Positions 58,497 through 64,000 of a DNA stretch of 64,000 nt are shown in pieces. The position numbers and the translations under genes were made by a program. The stretch lies in NCBI GenBank assembly GCA_020059045.1, contig JAGVCW010000018.1, forward strand, positions 25,320 to 89,319, given 5' to 3'. The stretch comes from Minisyncoccota bacterium (lineage in GTDB: Bacteria > Patescibacteriota > Minisyncoccia > Phycocordibacterales > Zambryskibacteraceae). The notes below the pieces were generated by a model. That model did not search any database. It was not told the DNA's origin and worked only from the letters and a program-made list of their open reading frames with translations. Numbering within the stretch: position 1 is the first letter of the stretch; every line of letters begins with the position of its first letter.

Positions 58497-60425
58497 TTAG
58501 CCAAGTGTGGCTTTTATCCTCCTTGTACCAGCCGATACTGCTTCCTCTTTAATAATTTTGAAGTTACCTTTCAATTTACCGTCAGTTTCGGAAAGACTAG
58601 AGAGGTCACTAGTTTTCTCGACATGTGGGCCACCACAGAATTCCTTGGATATAATGTTTCCATCCTTATCTTCAATAAAATAAAGTGAAACAATGTCGGG
58701 GTACTTGGCTCCGAATTCCATCTCTGCACCAATAGTTTCAGCCTCAATACGTGGCATTTCTTTGCGTAGAACGGTTAGATCCTCCTCAATACGACGATTT
58801 ACAATATTTTCTACTATTCTTAATTCATCACTTGTAAGTTTTCTTGGGAAGGAAAAGTCCATACGTAGTCTTTCCTCAGTAATATTACTTCCCTTCTGCT
58901 TCACTTCCTTACCAAGCACCTCTTGTAGGGCAGCAAGTAGTAGATGATGCGCAGTATGAAGTTTTATAGTTTGCTCACTTGTATTTGCAAGTCCACCCTT
59001 AAACATCCCTACAGAAGATGTACGAGATAGCTCTTGATGTTGTTTAAGCTTTTCTTCAAAGCCTGGAGTGTCTACATTGATACCTCTTTCCTTTGCAATT
59101 TCCGCAATAATCTCTATTGGGAAACCATAGGTTTGGTAAAGGTCAAAAATTACTGTTCCAGGTAAAGTAATTGCTTCTTTGTATCCAGTCTGGTTCGGAG
59201 CGTATGTCATTCCGTTTCTAATTATTGGAACTTCTGAGGTATTACTTGCTATGTATGCATATTCAATAATTGTTTTCTCAAATTCTTTAAGACCTTGCTT
59301 GAGTGTTTCCTCAAACTTAATTAATTCTGTATCAATAGTCTTAATTATATCAATGACTTTACTCTCCAAATCGTAGAGTCCAGAGTATTTACTAACCACA
59401 CTTTTCACAAACGCAGTAATTTGTGGATTATCTATATTTTTTGAGTCCACTTTTAGAAGAGCTCGACGCAATAATCTTCTAAGTACGTACCCTCTTCCTG
59501 TATTAGATGGAGCCACTCCGTCTGAAATCATAAATACAGCAGTACGGAAGTGGTCAGCAATTATTCTTTGACTTTTAGTATCATTTGAAAGTTTACTTGT
59601 CTCATTAATCAAGTTCACAAATAGATCTGTATCAAACACAGTATCTTTTCCGTTCACAGCGGCGGTAGTTCTTTCAAGTCCCATTCCTGTATCAACATTT
59701 TTTTGTGTAAGAGGCTCAAAAGCGCCTTGTTCTGTTTTATTAAATTCGATAAACACATCATACCAAATTTCAACGAACCGATATGAGTCAACAAGATCAC
59801 TGAAGCGGCCAACTGGCTTGCCGAGCTCTGGGCGGGTGTCATAAAACATCTCTGTATCACCACCGCATGGACCAGTAGACCCAGCAATCCAGAAATTATC
59901 CTTTGTTCCAAGCGGGATTATGCGTATATTATCTGCGACCATCTCATCATCACCTGCAACTCCATTACTCAAATTATTCTCATTTAGTACCTCACGCCAC
60001 TCATTTATTGATTCCTCGTCTCTGGGAATCCCATTTTCTCCCTTGAAAACAGTAATATACAATCGGCTTGGATCCAACCCAAGTCCCTCCTCTTTTGAAG
60101 TAATAAACTCAAAGCTCCACCGAATTGCTTCCTTCTTGAAATAGTCGCCGAGGGACCAATTACCAAGCATTTCAAAGAATGTCAGGTGCCTATTGTCGCC
60201 AACATCCTCTATATCTCCTGTACGTACGCACTTCTGAGCGTCAACAAGTCTTTTACCCAGTGGATGCTCTTGCCCCAATAGGTAAGGAACAAGTGGTTGC
60301 ATGCCAGCAGTTATAAAGAGTGAGGATGGATCATTTTCGGGCACAAGAGAAGCCGAAGGGATGATTTTGTGTCCCCTCTTTTCAAAAAATTTTAGAAACC
60401 TACCGCGAATTTCTTCAGATGTCAT
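58497..60425 (-). CDS. alaS: alanyl-tRNA synthetase, short form (catalytic plus editing domains, no long C-terminal extension)
   Basis: The probable start is MTSEEIRGRFLKFFEKRGHKIIPSASLVP.... The ORF track extends 25 codons upstream to 60497 with a hydrophobic stretch. The editing-domain HxxxH is HTAHHLLLAALQ. Total length is about 643 aa versus the usual ~870. Confidence 0.85.
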   Translation of the reverse strand: MTSEEIRGRFLKFFEKRGHKIIPSASLVPENDPSSLFITAGMQPLVPYLLGQEHPLGKRLVDAQKCVRTGDIEDVGDNRHLTFFEMLGNWSLGDYFKKEAIRWSFEFITSKEEGLGLDPSRLYITVFKGENGIPRDEESINEWREVLNENNLSNGVAGDDEMVADNIRIIPLGTKDNFWIAGSTGPCGGDTEMFYDTRPELGKPVGRFSDLVDSYRFVEIWYDVFIEFNKTEQGAFEPLTQKNVDTGMGLERTTAAVNGKDTVFDTDLFVNLINETSKLSNDTKSQRIIADHFRTAVFMISDGVAPSNTGRGYVLRRLLRRALLKVDSKNIDNPQITAFVKSVVSKYSGLYDLESKVIDIIKTIDTELIKFEETLKQGLKEFEKTIIEYAYIASNTSEVPIIRNGMTYAPNQTGYKEAITLPGTVIFDLYQTYGFPIEIIAEIAKERGINVDTPGFEEKLKQHQELSRTSSVGMFKGGLANTSEQTIKLHTAHHLLLAALQEVLGKEVKQKGSNITEERLRMDFSFPRKLTSDELRIVENIVNRRIEEDLTVLRKEMPRIEAETIGAEMEFGAKYPDIVSLYFIEDKDGNIISKEFCGGPHVEKTSDLSSLSETDGKLKGNFKIIKEEAVSAGTRRIKATLG

Positions 60426-60505
60426 CAGAAAAATATAGCACAATAAAAAACTAATAAAAAACTCCAAGAATTGCCTTCTTCTTGAAGTAAGTTTCACCTG
60501 GCATT

Positions 60506-60850
60506 CTAGATGCTCCCATCATAAATGGAGAACTGCAAGGGAGAGTACATAACAAGTCTCCAAGATGCTCCAAGGCGAAGGAAATCCCTATATGTCCCCG
60601 AAATAAGCATAAACGGCACTCTATGCATTTGAAAACAACATTCGATTGTACCCGTGCTACTCCGTTTGGGGGCCCGGTCTTCTCCATCCTCATCCTTCAA
60701 AACAGGAGTAACTGGCTTAAACGTTAGCCGGAAGTAATTGCCTGGACCTGGGGCTACACATAACTCCACGCGAACAGGTTTCTTGAAAACTACCTTACGC
60801 TCTACTTCCGCGGTAGAAGACATTTTCACCTCAAGTGGGTGGTTAGACAT
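60506..60850 (-). CDS. hypothetical protein
   Basis: 114 aa with no recognised family. It competes with the overlapping 60451-60693 ORF. Confidence 0.3.
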   Translation of the reverse strand: MSNHPLEVKMSSTAEVERKVVFKKPVRVELCVAPGPGNYFRLTFKPVTPVLKDEDGEDRAPKRSSTGTIECCFQMHRVPFMLISGTYRDFLRLGASWRLVMYSPLQFSIYDGSI

Positions 60851-60910
60851 TTACATCTTGCTCTAATGTAGCAGGTCCAAGAACAAGAAGCAAAAACACT
60901 CCTAATACAT

Positions 60911-61504
60911 TTATATGTATTCTTTAATCCTTTGGAAGTCCTCTTTTAGGGTGTCCAATGAACTTGCGTTGTAAATGGCAACTGCCGGATGGTACAAGGG
61001 AAGAATTTTCATTTCACCCCATGAAACTTTCGTCTCAAAGATTTGTCCATGGATTTTTGAAATAGGTTGTAGTGCACTTTCAAGTTCGAATTTCTTCATA
61101 ACATATGCCATAGAAAATCTCCCGAGGGTTGCAATAATCTTTGGTCGTATTATTTCAATTTGTCTATCAAGAAACGGAGAGTATATTTCAATTTCAACTG
61201 GCTCTGGATCGCGGTTACCAGGTGGGCGATCCTTTACAGTGTTTGTTATATAGACCTCACTACGTGGCAGCCCTATGCTTGCAAGAAGTTCATCTAGAAT
61301 CTTTCCCGCCCTGCCACAGAACGGCTTCCCTGTTTTTGCTTCATTCTGTCCCGGTGCCTCACCTACAAACATCACCCTAGAATCATGACTCCCCTCCCCA
61401 ATTACTGGGAAATATTTGTTTTCGGTCCGATAATTAAATAGAGGAGACTTTTCCAAGACCAGAATCTCATCCTTTATTCTTTTCATCTCATCAAATTTAC
61501 TCAT
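60911..61504 (-). CDS. uracil-DNA glycosylase, family 4
   Basis: 197 aa. The motif FVGEAPGQNEAKTGKPFCGRAGKILDELL is the family 4 UDG motif A. Confidence 0.85.
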   Translation of the reverse strand: MSKFDEMKRIKDEILVLEKSPLFNYRTENKYFPVIGEGSHDSRVMFVGEAPGQNEAKTGKPFCGRAGKILDELLASIGLPRSEVYITNTVKDRPPGNRDPEPVEIEIYSPFLDRQIEIIRPKIIATLGRFSMAYVMKKFELESALQPISKIHGQIFETKVSWGEMKILPLYHPAVAIYNASSLDTLKEDFQRIKEYI

Positions 61505-62021
61505 GGGTTAGAGTTTCGTCGTTTAATATTTTATAATAAAACTCGTATTTGGCTTTCTGGTACTCGTATTTACTTTTTTTATGGCACGCCTTTTTTATAC
61601 TCTCGTATTCATCTTGAAGAGAAGGATTTGTTTTCAGTAGATTAAACAGTTTAAGCTGGCGGGATAAATTTTCTGTCCGAACTGACAAATATAATTCAAC
61701 CGGAATGTTACCTTCATTCCATAACCACTCACAAAAAAGAGTTCCTTCATGGAGCGGTGTCCCAAATATTTGACATAAGGAAGCTTTATTATTTTGGTAT
61801 AAAGACTGATCAGTAATAGCATATAAATCCACATCACCTTCTCCAACAAGGCTAAGTGCAGACGCTCCAATAAAATATGTCTCTATATCCAAACCTTGTT
61901 CATTGATTTTTCTTAGAATGTCATTGGCAACTTGGTGAGTTCTTGGGTTAAATGCATTAATTACAACTTTTTCAGTATTACTTAATGTGGACAAATATTT
62001 TTCATCGTCGGGGTACATCAT
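61497..62021 (-). CDS. GrpB-family nucleotidyltransferase-fold protein
   Basis: 174 aa. IGASALSLVGEGDVDLYAIT (GS...D.D) and a C-terminal ...LLKTNPSLQDEYESIKK resemble GrpB/UPF0157. Confidence 0.65.
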   Translation of the reverse strand: MMYPDDEKYLSTLSNTEKVVINAFNPRTHQVANDILRKINEQGLDIETYFIGASALSLVGEGDVDLYAITDQSLYQNNKASLCQIFGTPLHEGTLFCEWLWNEGNIPVELYLSVRTENLSRQLKLFNLLKTNPSLQDEYESIKKACHKKSKYEYQKAKYEFYYKILNDETLTHE

Positions 62022-62070
62022 TTTGAATGGTTGCTGTATGTATTAATATTTTGTATGTTACGCAACAATA

Positions 62071-62916
62071 CTAGCCAAAGAGAGTTTCCTTAGTTGATTC
62101 GCCCTTTGTTTCCGATTTTAAATTTCTATTTTTCCCTTTTTCATTATTATCTATTGCATTTCCCCTCATCACATCTCCGAGAGATTCTACATAACCACAA
62201 TAATCACATTCCTCACCCGCCTTCGGAATTCTTCCGTCCATTAGGCATGTTTTCATTTTGCTAATAGTTTTTGGTATCCAATCTGTGTTTCCCTTGTATG
62301 GGATTATAGTTACATCAAATTCTAGTTTGCCATCAAGTGCCTTTTTGTCAGTTTTACCATTCACATATACAAAGTAGCCCGTATCTGAAACTTTAAATTT
62401 ATTTTGTTTGAAGAGCCATTGGTATATCTCCATCTGTCTCTTGTACTGTATCTTCCACTCATCATCAAGTGTAATCTCTTCGTCCTTACTTGTTGCTTTG
62501 TAATCTACAATGATTAATTCTTCCTGTGGACTTACCCACACATCATCCACTCCTCCACGAATAATGAGATTATTTTCCTTATCATGAAACGATATGCCCC
62601 TGCGTAATGCATCACGCCACTCTTCCATTCGCGAGTCCTGAAGTGGCACCGCGTCAATTCCGTATGATTTCATTAGTGGGTGCACAGTCTTCTCGGCTCT
62701 ATGAATGTCAAATTCTTTCTTAAGTAGTGTGTCCACTGCATTGTTAAGTGTCAGAGGAAAACTTGCAGGCCTTCCAACACCAAGTCTCACATCAAGATAA
62801 AAGCATCTTGGACATTGAATAAAGAGGTCTATTTTTGAGCGAGACAACCTAAATGGCTCAGTTGCATTTGGGTCGAAGAGATTCCTTGTTCTTCTAGGAT
62901 TATAGTACTTACTCAT
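62071..62916 (-). CDS. Cas4/RecB-like PD-(D/E)xK nuclease with an Fe-S cysteine set (stand-alone)
   Basis: 281 aa with an N-terminal CPRC. The motif GGVDDVWVSPQEELIIVDYK matches D...E.VDYK. C-terminal C...CDYCGY completes a 1+3 Cys arrangement typical of Cas4/AddB nuclease domains. Confidence 0.6.
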   Translation of the reverse strand: MSKYYNPRRTRNLFDPNATEPFRLSRSKIDLFIQCPRCFYLDVRLGVGRPASFPLTLNNAVDTLLKKEFDIHRAEKTVHPLMKSYGIDAVPLQDSRMEEWRDALRRGISFHDKENNLIIRGGVDDVWVSPQEELIIVDYKATSKDEEITLDDEWKIQYKRQMEIYQWLFKQNKFKVSDTGYFVYVNGKTDKKALDGKLEFDVTIIPYKGNTDWIPKTISKMKTCLMDGRIPKAGEECDYCGYVESLGDVMRGNAIDNNEKGKNRNLKSETKGESTKETLFG

Positions 62917-63743
62917 TGAAGATTTTTAATCTCGTCATACACAAGTTTAGCCTTAGCATCGCTAAAGCCAATAGATTTTAAAATACTTGGATCCTCGATT
63001 AGGGTCCTACACAACACAATCTCTCGAGAAAGTAACATTCTCTTCTGACTTCCAGACAGGTGCGTTAAGCAAGTAAGTGGATGAAGCCCACTATCCTCTA
63101 TCATTTCCTGTAGGTTCCCCTTTTTGGGATAATTCCATCCAATTAGTTTAAGACCCTTGCATTCTGCATAGCGTATTGCCGTATCAGTAAACTTTGTATT
63201 AGTTATGAGCCACCCTTCATCTAGATGCCTTGGTCTACCATAATCGTGCATTACTTCCTTAAGATCATCCATCCTTGCTTTCACGTATAGTGCCACCTTT
63301 ACATCTGACTTTAATCCTATTTCATTATGAAATTTAGCTTCAGCCATTATGAGCTTATTCTCATTCCAAGCCACCACGTCTACCTCATGAGACACACAAC
63401 CACCCATTACTATCTCATCAGTTTTAACCTCATAACCTTTTTCCTTAAGTACAGACCCTATGTAATCCTCAAAGGGAAACCCTGATGGGCCAAGTTCTTG
63501 TATTGCACGCCTAAGAGAATACTTCACCGCTGCAGGTCGTAGCCTTTTGTGCAATAGAAACAGCGCATGTTTGTATATCTGCGATGTTGCCATCCCATCT
63601 GTAATCTCAAGTGAGATGTGCTCTGTGAGATCCTCCGCGAGCTTCTTATCTGCTCCGGCCCTCACGAGAGAAGCTTCTAGTTTACTTCCATCAAATGGTT
63701 CAGACTTACCACTTGCTTTTACAACAGTAATTTCTGGTTGCAT
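62913..63743 (-). CDS. ATP-cone domain fused to an Mrr-like restriction endonuclease catalytic domain
   Basis: 276 aa. The N-terminal VVKASGKSEPFDGSKLEASLVRAG fits the ATP-cone pattern. The central FEDYIGSVLKEKGYEVKTDEIVMGGCVSHEVDVVAWNENKLIMAEAKF fits Mrr_cat (D...EAK). Confidence 0.6.
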   Translation of the reverse strand: MQPEITVVKASGKSEPFDGSKLEASLVRAGADKKLAEDLTEHISLEITDGMATSQIYKHALFLLHKRLRPAAVKYSLRRAIQELGPSGFPFEDYIGSVLKEKGYEVKTDEIVMGGCVSHEVDVVAWNENKLIMAEAKFHNEIGLKSDVKVALYVKARMDDLKEVMHDYGRPRHLDEGWLITNTKFTDTAIRYAECKGLKLIGWNYPKKGNLQEMIEDSGLHPLTCLTHLSGSQKRMLLSREIVLCRTLIEDPSILKSIGFSDAKAKLVYDEIKNLQ

Positions 63744-63785
63744 GTAAGTATTATAAGTAAGCTTTTTAGATTTAGCTATAAGACC

Positions 63786-64000
63786 CTAATTCTCTCAATC
63801 ACCCCACCTCCAAGACACTCATTTTTATCGTAAACAACGAGCGATTGACCTGAGGCTATATCAACGAGTGTCCTTTTGAAAGTTACAAGCCACTTCCCCT
63901 TTTCAATTTTAATCTTCGCATCTTGTAGTGGTTGCCTATATCTAATGCGCACACCATAGGTTTTATTAACTTCAGGTCTTCCCGTTATCCAATTGGTTCC
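63786..64000 (-). CDS. mnmA: tRNA 2-thiouridylase MnmA, C-terminal fragment (gene enters from beyond the window end)
   Basis: Minus-strand translation ...RPEVNKTYGVRIRYRQPLQDAKIKIEKGKWLVTFKRTLVDIASGQSLVVYDKNECLGGGVIERIR* matches the MnmA C-terminal beta-barrel (GQS.V.Y....CLGGGVI). Confidence 0.6.

Follow-up and report, generated by a model that had tools for sequence, protein, structure and literature searches.

A stand-alone Cas4-like nuclease gene in a probable housekeeping gene array of a Patescibacteria genome

Gene content and organization of the locus

The window, that is, the whole stretch of 64,000 nucleotides analyzed here, contains a run of minus-strand genes bounded by alaS and the 3' end of mnmA, between which lie the genes for an ATP-cone/Mrr protein, a Cas4-like nuclease, a GrpB-like protein and a uracil-DNA glycosylase (UDG) (Table 1). 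A first-pass annotation of this DNA described the latter four as a tightly overlapped cluster. The open reading frames (ORFs) are consecutive, and the ATP-cone/Mrr and Cas4-like genes overlap by 4 nt (62913-62916) and the GrpB-like and UDG genes by 8 nt (61497-61504), but the Cas4-like and GrpB-like genes are separated by a 49-nt spacer, so that the description holds for the two outer junctions only. With 44% identity and E = 3e-14, the mnmA fragment (74 amino acids) aligns with the C-terminal end of the representative of the MnmA cluster, and this representative in turn matches the Pfam family tRNA_Me_trans. The remaining ORFs of the window are housekeeping genes according to Pfam, including those for Hsp70, several aminoacyl-tRNA synthetases (aaRS), ribosomal proteins, RpoA and FtsW, and there is no integrase or methyltransferase among the Pfam families listed for the window. 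The GC content of the Mrr, Cas4-like and UDG genes (0.39-0.41, compared with 0.41 for the whole window) points to a native composition.

Scanning of the whole window at the Rfam gathering thresholds gave no match, and a search at E ≤ 1 over positions 60380-62120 detected neither a T-box nor any other leader ahead of alaS. The spacer between UDG and alaS has a GC content of 0.47, against 0.41 in the window, and yielded no Pfam match, no Rfam match at E ≤ 1 and, in 175 related loci, nothing similar at the nucleotide or protein level. A noncoding RNA or a pseudogene was considered for this spacer, but neither could be assigned, the folding z-score being +0.56 and both similarity and a protein remnant being absent. 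In relatives, the slot between UDG and alaS is either empty or occupied by an M3 peptidase gene.

Table 1. Features of the locus, with positions in the window
Feature	Positions	Strand	Description
mnmA 3' end (tRNA 2-thiouridylase)	63776..64000	-	Upstream anchor of the array; gene cut by the window end
ATP-cone/Mrr gene	62913..63743	-	276 aa; ATP-cone, AF1548-like restriction-endonuclease-fold (Mrr_cat) and C-terminal HhH-like domains
Cas4-like gene	62071..62916	-	281 aa; stand-alone Cas4/Dna2/RecE-fold PD-(D/E)xK nuclease ("solo Cas4-like")
AT-rich spacer	62022..62070	-	49 nt, from the Cas4-like stop codon to the GrpB-like start codon
GrpB-like gene	61497..62021	-	174 aa; divergent GrpB-family (UPF0157) minimal nucleotidyltransferase; lineage-specific insertion
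UDG gene	60911..61504	-	197 aa; family-4-type uracil-DNA glycosylase, single Cys
UDG/alaS spacer	60498..60910	-	413 nt; its 114-codon ORF (60506..60850) is unlikely to be a gene
alaS (alanyl-tRNA synthetase)	58497..60497	-	tRNA-synt_2c, E = 2.4e-127; downstream anchor of the array

The Cas4-like nuclease

The Cas4-like protein matches the PDDEXK_1 family (PF12705) with 47.9 bits (cut-off 22) over residues 23-243, and residues D124, D125, D138, K140, Q161 and Y165 are invariant among 20 homologs, so that the D, (D/E)xK and QxxxY motifs are intact. Because a search of the PDB sequences with the nuclease profile gave no significant match, Cas4 itself (4IC1) appearing only at E = 0.63, a comparison of folds was needed, and this comparison showed a Cas4/RecB-type nuclease fold. 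The label "Cas4" given to the protein earlier is not sustained by the curated models, both of which score it below their cut-offs: 28.7 bits against 65 for TIGR00372 and 17.8 bits against 22.7 for PF01930. Automated pipelines routinely assign this label to the family, which can mislead censuses of CRISPR and defense systems in CPR genomes.

The Fe-S ligands of Cas4, AddB, Dna2 and EXO5 are four cysteines in the arrangement C…C-x2-C-x5-C. The Cas4-like family has five invariant cysteines, C35, C38, C224, C237 and C240, which form the pattern CxxC…Cx12CxxC; the combination of C-x-[RK]-C-F-Y with C-x12-C-x2-C is present in 112 of 120 homologs, and the Cas4 pattern CxxCx5C in none of the 120. The cysteines, four of which were to be checked against the Cas4/AddB ligands, do not follow the pattern of these ligands, and the Fe-S cluster is an assumption; judging from the sequence, the two CxxC pairs appear equally compatible with Zn and with Fe-S. 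The protein ends in a basic C-terminal tail with TLFG as its last residues. Elsewhere in the window, a C-terminal LF is found in one unrelated 178-aa protein (ending PLF), from which nothing can be concluded.

The family is represented in at least 597 Patescibacteria species representatives, with 55-83% identity overall; the best 80 of these at least 597 loci show 55-71% identity, and their record titles are of the Patescibacteria/CPR type and cover many candidate phyla. In each of the 20 loci shared by the two proteins, the identity of the Cas4-like protein exceeds that of AlaRS, the median difference being 12.9 points. This Cas4-fold nuclease, whose Cys signature is atypical and whose terminal peptide is conserved, ranks among the most conserved proteins of Patescibacteria.

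Proteins encoded next to the nuclease

The product of the upstream gene matches Mrr_cat with 32.3 bits (cut-off 21); its ATP-cone scores 23.2 bits, just below the cut-off of 25.8, and PF03477 is recorded for most of its homologs. A profile built from 19 homologs matches AF1548 (PDB 1Y88) over residues 94-274 with E = 2.6e-37 and, weakly, the ATP-cones of NrdR and NrdD. Residues K9, G12, F17 and K21 in the ATP-cone region and H119, E120, D122, E135 and K137 in the nuclease core are invariant. There are 7068 homologs of this protein, the top 120 being 56-71% identical to it, and a literature search on the ATP-cone with Mrr and on AF1548 found nothing relevant.

The assignment of the UDG to family 4 in the first-pass annotation is confirmed by TIGR00758 (199.4 bits, cut-off 125.3) and by the presence of the GEAPG and HPA motifs (VGEAPG and YHPAVA in the translation); the protein also matches Pfam UDG (115 bits, E = 2.9e-33). 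The protein contains one cysteine, and 38 of 41 orthologs contain between none and two.

The GrpB-like protein is more divergent. It reaches 21.8 bits against Pfam GrpB (PF04229; cut-off 25.5) in a partial match restricted to residues 106-166, but its relatives (phmmer, E down to 6e-34) pass the GrpB cut-off over their full length with 33.9-41.1 bits, so that its identification as GrpB is supported through these relatives and not by the score of the protein itself. The minimal nucleotidyltransferase motif G-[SG]…[DE]-x-[DE] is present (IGASALSLVGEGDVDLYA, with G52, S54, D63 and D65). An exhaustive phmmer search produced 298 matches, the best non-self match being 39% identical, and a word-index search of 5.8 billion proteins retrieved the protein itself alone; relatives are fused to NUDIX, HAD, TehB-methyltransferase or APH domains, all of them from enzymes that act on small molecules. 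The gene was sought in 177 related loci (L001-L175, L176 and L177) and is absent from them, and its GC content (0.341) and GC3 (0.29) are lower than those of its neighbors (0.39-0.41 and about 0.35, respectively). Its earlier inclusion in the same cluster as the nucleases and UDG is contradicted by this low GC content and by its absence even beside Cas4-like proteins that are 80-83% identical. The GrpB-like gene is a recent, one-off insertion specific to its lineage and does not belong to the conserved part of the cluster.

A conserved gene array and its limits

Protein clustering combined with Pfam delineates the backbone of an array that is shared by the clade and runs on one strand in the order class-I aaRS, sigma-r4/HARE-HTH, membrane protein, YceG, MnmA, ATP-cone/Mrr, (Cas4-like), (UDG), AlaRS, two unknown proteins, IF-1, S13, S11 and S4. 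Of the 86 loci with a member of the ATP-cone/Mrr cluster, 71 have MnmA in front of that gene, and alaS lies downstream on the same strand in the 34 loci in which the whole interval is visible. Between Mrr and alaS, 13 of these 34 loci have both the Cas4-like gene and UDG, 10 have UDG only, 4 the Cas4-like gene only and 7 neither.

Within the clade, ATP-cone/Mrr, Cas4-like and UDG repeatedly follow one another in this order, often with an Ogt-type gene between the latter two. The order is unchanged in the two closest relatives (L176 and L177), the Cas4-like proteins of which are 80-83% identical to that of the window and in which the Cas4-like gene directly abuts UDG. The three genes are still consecutive (apart from the Ogt-type gene in 16 relatives) at 43-57% AlaRS identity, and because they recur consecutively at this divergence, some functional coupling of the three DNA-acting genes is possible. 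Throughout the array, genes commonly lie close together or overlap: mnmA and Mrr overlap in 19 of 56 loci and UDG and the M3 peptidase gene in 4 of 9, counts that are approximate because the longest ORFs were taken to define the start codons in the related loci. The 4-nt and 8-nt overlaps are therefore not special, equally tight junctions joining unrelated genes of the array.

Across the phylum, the neighborhood of the Cas4-like gene dissolves. Within 8 kb of the gene in the 80-species set, Mrr is found in 10, UDG in 6 and GrpB in none of the 80 loci. The immediate neighbors of the orthologs (n = 148) represent 171 Pfam families, none of which occurs more than four times, and the 74 upstream and 74 downstream neighbors fall into 62 and 68 distinct clusters, respectively; in other words, the neighbors are essentially random. 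The linkage expected from the first-pass annotation is thus preserved for Mrr, Cas4-like and UDG in their own clade but not across the phylum, where the genes are scattered and GrpB is near the Cas4-like gene in none of the 80 species. This is largely the outcome, scattered genes and an ordinary repair nuclease, with which that annotation had said its cluster would fall.

CRISPR and defense genes

No CRISPR-like array was detected in the window by a repeat search, and models of Cas1 and Cas2 matched none of its 69 ORFs, in agreement with what had been noted from the sequence. Given these results and the heterogeneous neighbors in 80 species, the Cas4-like gene lies outside a CRISPR adaptation module, as the initial reading had also held. 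Analysis of the same 69 ORFs with PADLOC, the kind of check proposed for a defense role, returned isolated generic matches only and no defense system. Variable presence and odd composition, two traits of a defense island, are confined to the GrpB-like gene with its low GC content. The suggestion that the region is an island rather than housekeeping is at odds with the collinear, same-strand housekeeping array, the native composition, an evolutionary rate of the genes that equals or falls below that of AlaRS, and the lack of a defense system.

The nuclease was also found in 15 IMG/VR contigs, which carry restriction-modification (R-M), Thoeris and integrase genes together with housekeeping genes, among them those for YceG and SAM synthetase. 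Interpretation of the nuclease as a phage gene was rejected, there being only these 15 contigs and no capsid or terminase family among the 25 commonest Pfam families.

Proposed role and alternative explanations

We favor, with a probability of roughly 0.7, the view that the region consists of vertically inherited housekeeping genes of a Patescibacteria (Paceibacteria-type) genome and is neither a mobile nor a defense island, that the Cas4-like protein is a phylum-wide, CRISPR-independent nuclease and that the GrpB-like gene is a recent, unrelated arrival. The proximity of Mrr, Cas4-like and UDG would then reflect conserved synteny of maintenance genes and not an obligate multi-protein system; the array genes are probably co-transcribed by read-through, and the GrpB-like gene, encoding a small nucleotidyltransferase, would have inserted between Cas4-like and UDG. 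The Cas4-like protein is most likely a metal-dependent nuclease that trims single-stranded DNA ends or flaps in repair, recombination or replication, with D124/D125, D138-x-K140 and Q161…Y165 as the predicted catalytic set. A putative Cys-ligated metal center, with either Fe-S or Zn bound by C35/C38 and C224/C237/C240, would hold the N-terminal helices and the C-terminal helix together. In the members that bear the tail, the conserved C-terminal [ST]-L-F, which follows a predicted basic disordered linker, may anchor the enzyme to a partner, for example the sliding clamp, although our confidence in this is low. Understanding the role of the nuclease would help to explain how minimal genomes are maintained, the candidates being the processing of ends or flaps, substitution for a repair nuclease that is missing, and nucleotide salvage.

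The three DNA-acting genes might alternatively form a dedicated operon for the repair of base damage, in which UDG (with Ogt in relatives) makes or marks lesions and the ATP/dATP-gated AF1548-like nuclease and the Cas4-like exonuclease incise and resect, as a lineage-specific stand-in for AP-endonuclease or flap processing of the canonical kind. Such an operon would account for the recurrence, on a single strand and with 0-20 nt at the junctions, of Mrr, Cas4-like, the Ogt-type gene (DNA_binding_1) where present, and UDG, for the 14 loci without the Cas4-like gene in which Mrr and UDG abut or overlap, with a median gap of -11 nt, and for the HD_3/YfbR-like deoxynucleotidase found in the Mrr-to-alaS interval of three loci. 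We nevertheless consider it unlikely, since the presence and absence of the Cas4-like gene and UDG occur in all four combinations at the locus, the same slots are taken by genes unrelated to DNA (PCMT, MgtC, DUF7282 and M3 peptidase), the most conserved junction, mnmA/Mrr, has no repair logic, and the Cas4-like gene is unlinked to UDG or Mrr outside the clade. Nucleotide salvage, in which the Cas4-like nuclease would degrade imported or host-derived DNA for a lineage that lacks de novo nucleotide synthesis, is highly improbable. The family occurs almost throughout a phylum whose members reportedly rely on external nucleotides, and a YfbR-like deoxynucleotidase and an ATP-cone protein are encoded near the gene in relatives; yet the Cas4-like protein has neither a signal peptide nor linked uptake genes, members of this fold family typically process ends instead of degrading DNA in bulk, and nothing in the neighborhoods points specifically to salvage. 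A salvage function has also been raised for CRISPR nucleases (bioRxiv 10.1101/2022.04.20.488981).

A connection to defense can be conceived in two ways. The Cas4-like nuclease and a restriction-type neighbor, here ATP-cone/Mrr, could form a defense module or hotspot directed against foreign DNA, possibly containing uracil or otherwise modified, as would fit the Mrr_cat (type IV restriction) core of the upstream protein, the varied defense-type genes that directly precede the orthologs in the 15 IMG/VR contigs and in several GTDB genomes, and the adjacency of solo Cas4 to R-M genes in some DPANN archaea that is described in a published survey (PMC5704561). The strong purifying selection on Mrr and Cas4-like and their fixed synteny with mnmA and alaS make this very unlikely, as do the native composition and the lack of a methyltransferase, integrase or other defense gene in the window; moreover, the Cas4-like ortholog is 54-66% identical whatever its neighbor, which argues for a neighbor-independent function. 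A gene of the defense type (OLD-family nuclease, GmrSD, reverse transcriptase, ResIII or ResIII-TnsA, HerA, UvrD or SLATT) does sometimes lie immediately upstream in other lineages, but the IMG/VR sample is biased toward islands, and among the 74 upstream neighbors of the species set, which is free of this bias, only about 6 are defense-like. A variant that we regard as distinctly unlikely retains the phylum-wide core nuclease, with a putative non-canonical five-Cys metal center and a putative [ST]LF docking peptide, and takes its 5' flank to be a recurrent landing site, or a functional partner, of these varied defense modules, represented in the present clade by the ATP-cone-gated Mrr-type nuclease. 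If this were the case, the Cas4-like protein would be a common downstream DNA-processing enzyme that serves unrelated immune sensors.

Comparison with known systems

The proteins encoded next to the nuclease each depart from their nearest known counterparts. The ATP-cone/Mrr protein is homologous over residues 94-274 to AF1548 (PDB 1Y88), a structural-genomics protein with a restriction-endonuclease-like fold and HhH, and retains the (E/D)…ExK core, but only the window protein has an N-terminal ATP-cone. In the characterized Thermus and archaeal family 4 UDGs, four cysteines ligate a [4Fe-4S] cluster; the UDG of the window lacks the cysteines needed for such a cluster. The GrpB-like protein differs from GrpB/UPF0157 in that it scores below the family cut-off, is a near-orphan and has no conserved link to DNA-acting genes.

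The Cas4-like protein resembles CRISPR Cas4 (SSO0001, PDB 4IC1; Cas4-Cas1 fusion, 7MI4) in its RecB motifs D…DxK…QxxxY, in the C-P-R-x-F-Y context of the N-terminal Cys and in the C-terminal CxxC. Unlike CRISPR Cas4, it has no counterpart of the last Cys of CxxCx5C at the C-terminus, carries the additional invariant C38 and C224 and is about 80 residues longer than is typical, with an extra helical insertion and the tail. With the Fe-S nuclease domains of AddB/AdnAB, Dna2 and EXO5 it shares a RecB-like core in which a Cys cluster bridges N- and C-terminal elements; it differs from them in having no helicase domain or partner, in the spacing of the cysteines and in that its metal center is putative.

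The closest counterpart is the solo Cas4/PDDEXK_1 of CPR bacteria (Hudaiberdiev et al. 2017, PMC5704561), which that survey presents as common in CPR genomes, vertically inherited and functionally uncharacterized. The likeness extends to the stand-alone, non-CRISPR context, the small CPR genome, vertical inheritance and purifying selection. Three features seen here were not found in the consulted passages of the survey, namely, the CxxC…Cx12CxxC arrangement of cysteines, the conserved C-terminal [ST]LF peptide and the clade-specific position between the ATP-cone/AF1548-like nuclease and UDG.

Genomic Context of the Cas4-like Gene

The four minus-strand genes (see table) are best read as slowly evolving DNA-maintenance genes held in a lineage-specific conserved synteny, with one unrelated recent insertion, and not as the defence or modified-DNA island proposed in the first-pass annotation, a reading that is not supported. 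The observation behind that proposal is real apart from details of layout: the ATP-cone/Mrr and Cas4-like ORFs overlap by 4 nt and the GrpB-like and UDG ORFs by 8 nt, but the supposedly tight cluster is interrupted by a 49-nt spacer between the Cas4-like and GrpB-like genes. Upstream of the ATP-cone/Mrr gene lies the 3' end of mnmA, cut by the window end, and UDG is followed by a 413-nt spacer and alaS. As also annotated, the 64-kb window has no CRISPR-like array. Neither tRNA genes nor Rfam families at the gathering threshold were found across the 64 kb.

Coordinates of the genes and other features of the locus
Feature	Position	Strand	Length
ATP-cone/Mrr ORF	62913..63743	-	276 aa
Cas4-like ORF	62071..62916	-	281 aa
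Cas4-like C-terminus	62071-62150		
GrpB-like ORF	61497..62021	-	174 aa
UDG ORF	60911..61504	-	197 aa
UDG/alaS spacer	60498-60910		413 nt
alaS, longest ORF	58497-60497		

With each GTDB species represented by a single genome, at least 597 Cas4-like loci were confirmed, and the best 80 of these (55–71 % identity) were surveyed within ±8 kb of the nuclease gene; there, ATP-cone/Mrr was found in 10 of 80, UDG in 6 and GrpB in none. Clustering yields 62 clusters for the 74 upstream neighbours and 68 for the 74 downstream ones; together, these 148 immediate neighbours match 171 Pfam families, the commonest of which (cyclophilin, trypsin-like peptidase and ATP-cone/Mrr_cat) occur four times each. Given this scatter, the Cas4-like gene has no phylum-wide linkage. 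The 80 metagenome loci anchored on ATP-cone/Mrr (47–66 % identical), by contrast, share a strong collinear backbone on a single strand: class-I aaRS, Sigma70_r4/HARE-HTH protein, membrane protein, YceG, MnmA, ATP-cone/Mrr, Cas4-like, UDG, AlaRS, two unknowns, IF-1, S13, S11 and S4. Variable slots separate ATP-cone/Mrr from Cas4-like (MgtC, DUF7282 or HD_3), Cas4-like from UDG (an Ogt-type DNA_binding_1 gene or PCMT) and UDG from AlaRS (M3 peptidase). The window carries the same backbone tail, with infA and rpsM downstream. Among the 34 loci in which the whole Mrr-to-AlaRS interval is visible, 13 contain both the Cas4-like gene and UDG, 10 UDG only, 4 the Cas4-like gene only and 7 neither. Tiny gaps and overlaps run throughout the array, functionally unrelated gene pairs included, so that the overlaps of 4 and 8 nt are a product of genome compaction, and probably also of read-through transcription, not of any specific partnership. 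The Ogt-type protein (86 aa, with a PCHR active-site motif) occurs in 16 related loci (e.g., L110:4567-4827), 13 of which encode it directly 3' of the Cas4-like gene, and is absent from the window.

The GrpB-like gene, annotated as a member of the cluster, is a recent insertion outside any conserved cluster. It was found in none of the 175 related loci and is missing from the two closest relatives, whose Cas4-like proteins are 83 and 80 % identical to that of the window and whose nuclease gene directly adjoins UDG. Its GC content (0.341; GC3 0.29) is below that of its neighbours (0.39–0.41; GC3 about 0.35). The match to the GrpB profile is partial (21.8, cut-off 25.5), and a word-index search of 5.8 billion proteins returned only the protein itself. 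When 1.84 billion representatives were searched exhaustively with phmmer, 298 relatives were found (best non-self identity 39 %), which exceed the GrpB cut-off over their full length. Some of these are fused to NUDIX, HAD, TehB-type methyltransferase, APH or PIG-L domains, which points to small-molecule rather than DNA chemistry.

Defence Genes Near the Cas4-like Nuclease

PADLOC run on all 69 window ORFs detected no system, only isolated generic matches: Cas4 models (the nuclease), a DEDDh exonuclease and single 'mad' components. The single matches to the mad2, mad3 and mad8 models probably stem from generic housekeeping domains. The Pfam content of the window (Hsp70/DnaJ/GrpE, several aaRS, ribosomal proteins, RpoA, FtsW, ScpB) is that of housekeeping genes and base composition is uniform; the locus bears no island signature.

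A functional partnership of the nuclease with defence genes elsewhere is possible, if unlikely. On the 15 IMG/VR contigs with Cas4-like orthologues, the gene directly upstream is on the same strand, at most 15 nt away, and of a different defence type each time: ResIII with a TnsA-like nuclease, SLATT_4 (with a type I HsdR gene lying two genes upstream of it), DUF3644, HerA, UvrD, a 929-aa SMC/AAA_21 ATPase or GmrSD-HNH. Methyltransferase, integrase and Thoeris genes also lie near these orthologues. The IMG/VR sample is, however, biased towards islands. The unbiased GTDB species set has fewer defence-like genes in the upstream position, namely three OLD-family nucleases, one GmrSD and two RVT_1 reverse transcriptases (loci L007, L012, L039, L060, L009 and L036), and the other upstream neighbours checked are housekeeping genes. 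Because of this bias, and because orthologue identity is 54–66 % irrespective of the neighbour, we read the Cas4-like gene as a core gene that at times borders a variable region; its 5' side may be a recurrent landing site for defence genes.

Predicted Properties of the Encoded Proteins

The Cas4-like protein matches PDDEXK_1 (47.9 bits, cut-off 22) and stays below the cut-offs of both Cas4 profiles, PF01930 (17.8 versus 22.7) and TIGR00372 (28.7 versus 65), while the PADLOC Cas4 model gives an E value of 2.7e-9. It has over 8000 homologues; the best 120 are 59–83 % identical, and the named ones among them belong to Paceibacterota, Minisyncoccia, Parcubacteria or Patescibacteria. Record titles among the best 80 species loci include Nomura-, Yanofsky-, Taylor-, Jorgensen-, Wildermuth-, Azam-, Falkow-, Kerfeld-, Uhr-, Buchanan-, Levy-, Roizman-, Woyke- and Peribacteria. 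In comparisons within shared loci, sequence identity of the nuclease exceeds that of AlaRS in 20 of 20, by a median of 12.9 points, and that of the ATP-cone/Mrr protein in 39 of 44.

When 20 members are aligned, the RecB-type catalytic residues (D124/D125, D138-x-K140, Q161…Y165) are invariant, as are five cysteines (C35, C38, C224, C237, C240). The latter do not match the pattern of the Cas4/AddB Fe-S ligands, a check proposed in the first-pass annotation: C-x-[RK]-C-F-Y plus C-x12-C-x2-C is present in 112 of the best 120 homologues, and C-x2-C-x5-C, the signature of Cas4, AddB and Dna2, in none of the 120. The invariant cysteines and conserved patterns make a Cys-ligated metal site, either Fe-S or Zn, likely, with a predicted ligand set different from the canonical one. 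Sequence search alone detected no solved relative, and Foldseek comparison of the AlphaFold model (pLDDT 79) with solved structures matched AdnA, RecE and SSO0001, so that the modelled protein groups by fold with nucleases that process single strands and ends. In 65 of the 120 homologues the last CxxC is followed by a basic tail, 22 residues long or more, whose linker is not conserved; in 50 of the 65, [ST]-L-F stands among the final four residues (…KETLFG in the window protein). This ending has the look of a short docking peptide and may resemble the L-F terminus of clamp-binding peptides in bacteria. Judging by fold and motifs, the enzyme would carry out metal-dependent processing of ends or flaps, with a structural Cys-metal centre and the C-terminal peptide as a possible docking element.

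The ATP-cone/Mrr protein matches Mrr_cat (32.3 bits, cut-off 21) and falls just under the cut-off for ATP-cone (23.2 versus 25.8); its N-terminus weakly resembles the ATP-cones of NrdR/NrdD. Residues 94-274 are homologous (E 2.6e-37) to AF1548 (PDB 1Y88), a restriction-endonuclease-fold and HhH protein of uncharacterised function. Alignment shows no variation in the residues of the nuclease core or in those that mark the ATP-cone, and the family has 7068 homologues. The protein is a conserved, uncharacterised nuclease that may be gated by nucleotides. Its gene lies directly downstream of mnmA in 71 of the 86 loci having it and adjoins UDG where the Cas4-like gene is absent.

The window UDG scores 199.4 against TIGR00758 (cut-off 125.3) and is by this profile a family-4-type enzyme. 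Characterised family-4 UDGs hold a four-Cys Fe-S cluster, whereas the window protein has one cysteine and 38 of 41 orthologues have 0–2; the enzyme of this lineage therefore lacks this site and cannot hold such a cluster. The UDG/alaS spacer (GC 0.47 versus 0.41 for the genome) has no Rfam match, is not conserved across the 175 related loci and shows no excess in folding energy, and the 114-codon ORF inside it yielded no homologues. The longest alaS ORF begins with GTG and adds ~25 hydrophobic residues ahead of MTSEEIRGRF, the true start probably being an internal ATG; the AlaRS is short, its Pfam matches limited to the catalytic core and tRNA_SAD.

Comparison With Known Solo Cas4 Genes

The stand-alone Cas4-like gene is an already known phenomenon. 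Hudaiberdiev et al. (2017; PMC5704561) describe solo Cas4 genes as common in CPR genomes without CRISPR-Cas, evolving vertically under ordinary purifying selection and with function given as unknown, and report that no major branch of the pfam12705 group is CRISPR-associated. A cas4 gene without cas1 or cas2 is also described in recent genomic work on Patescibacteria (bioRxiv 10.1101/2024.03.08.584096). What gives the present locus its remaining value is the role of this near-universal Patescibacteria nuclease and its routine mis-annotation as 'Cas4'.
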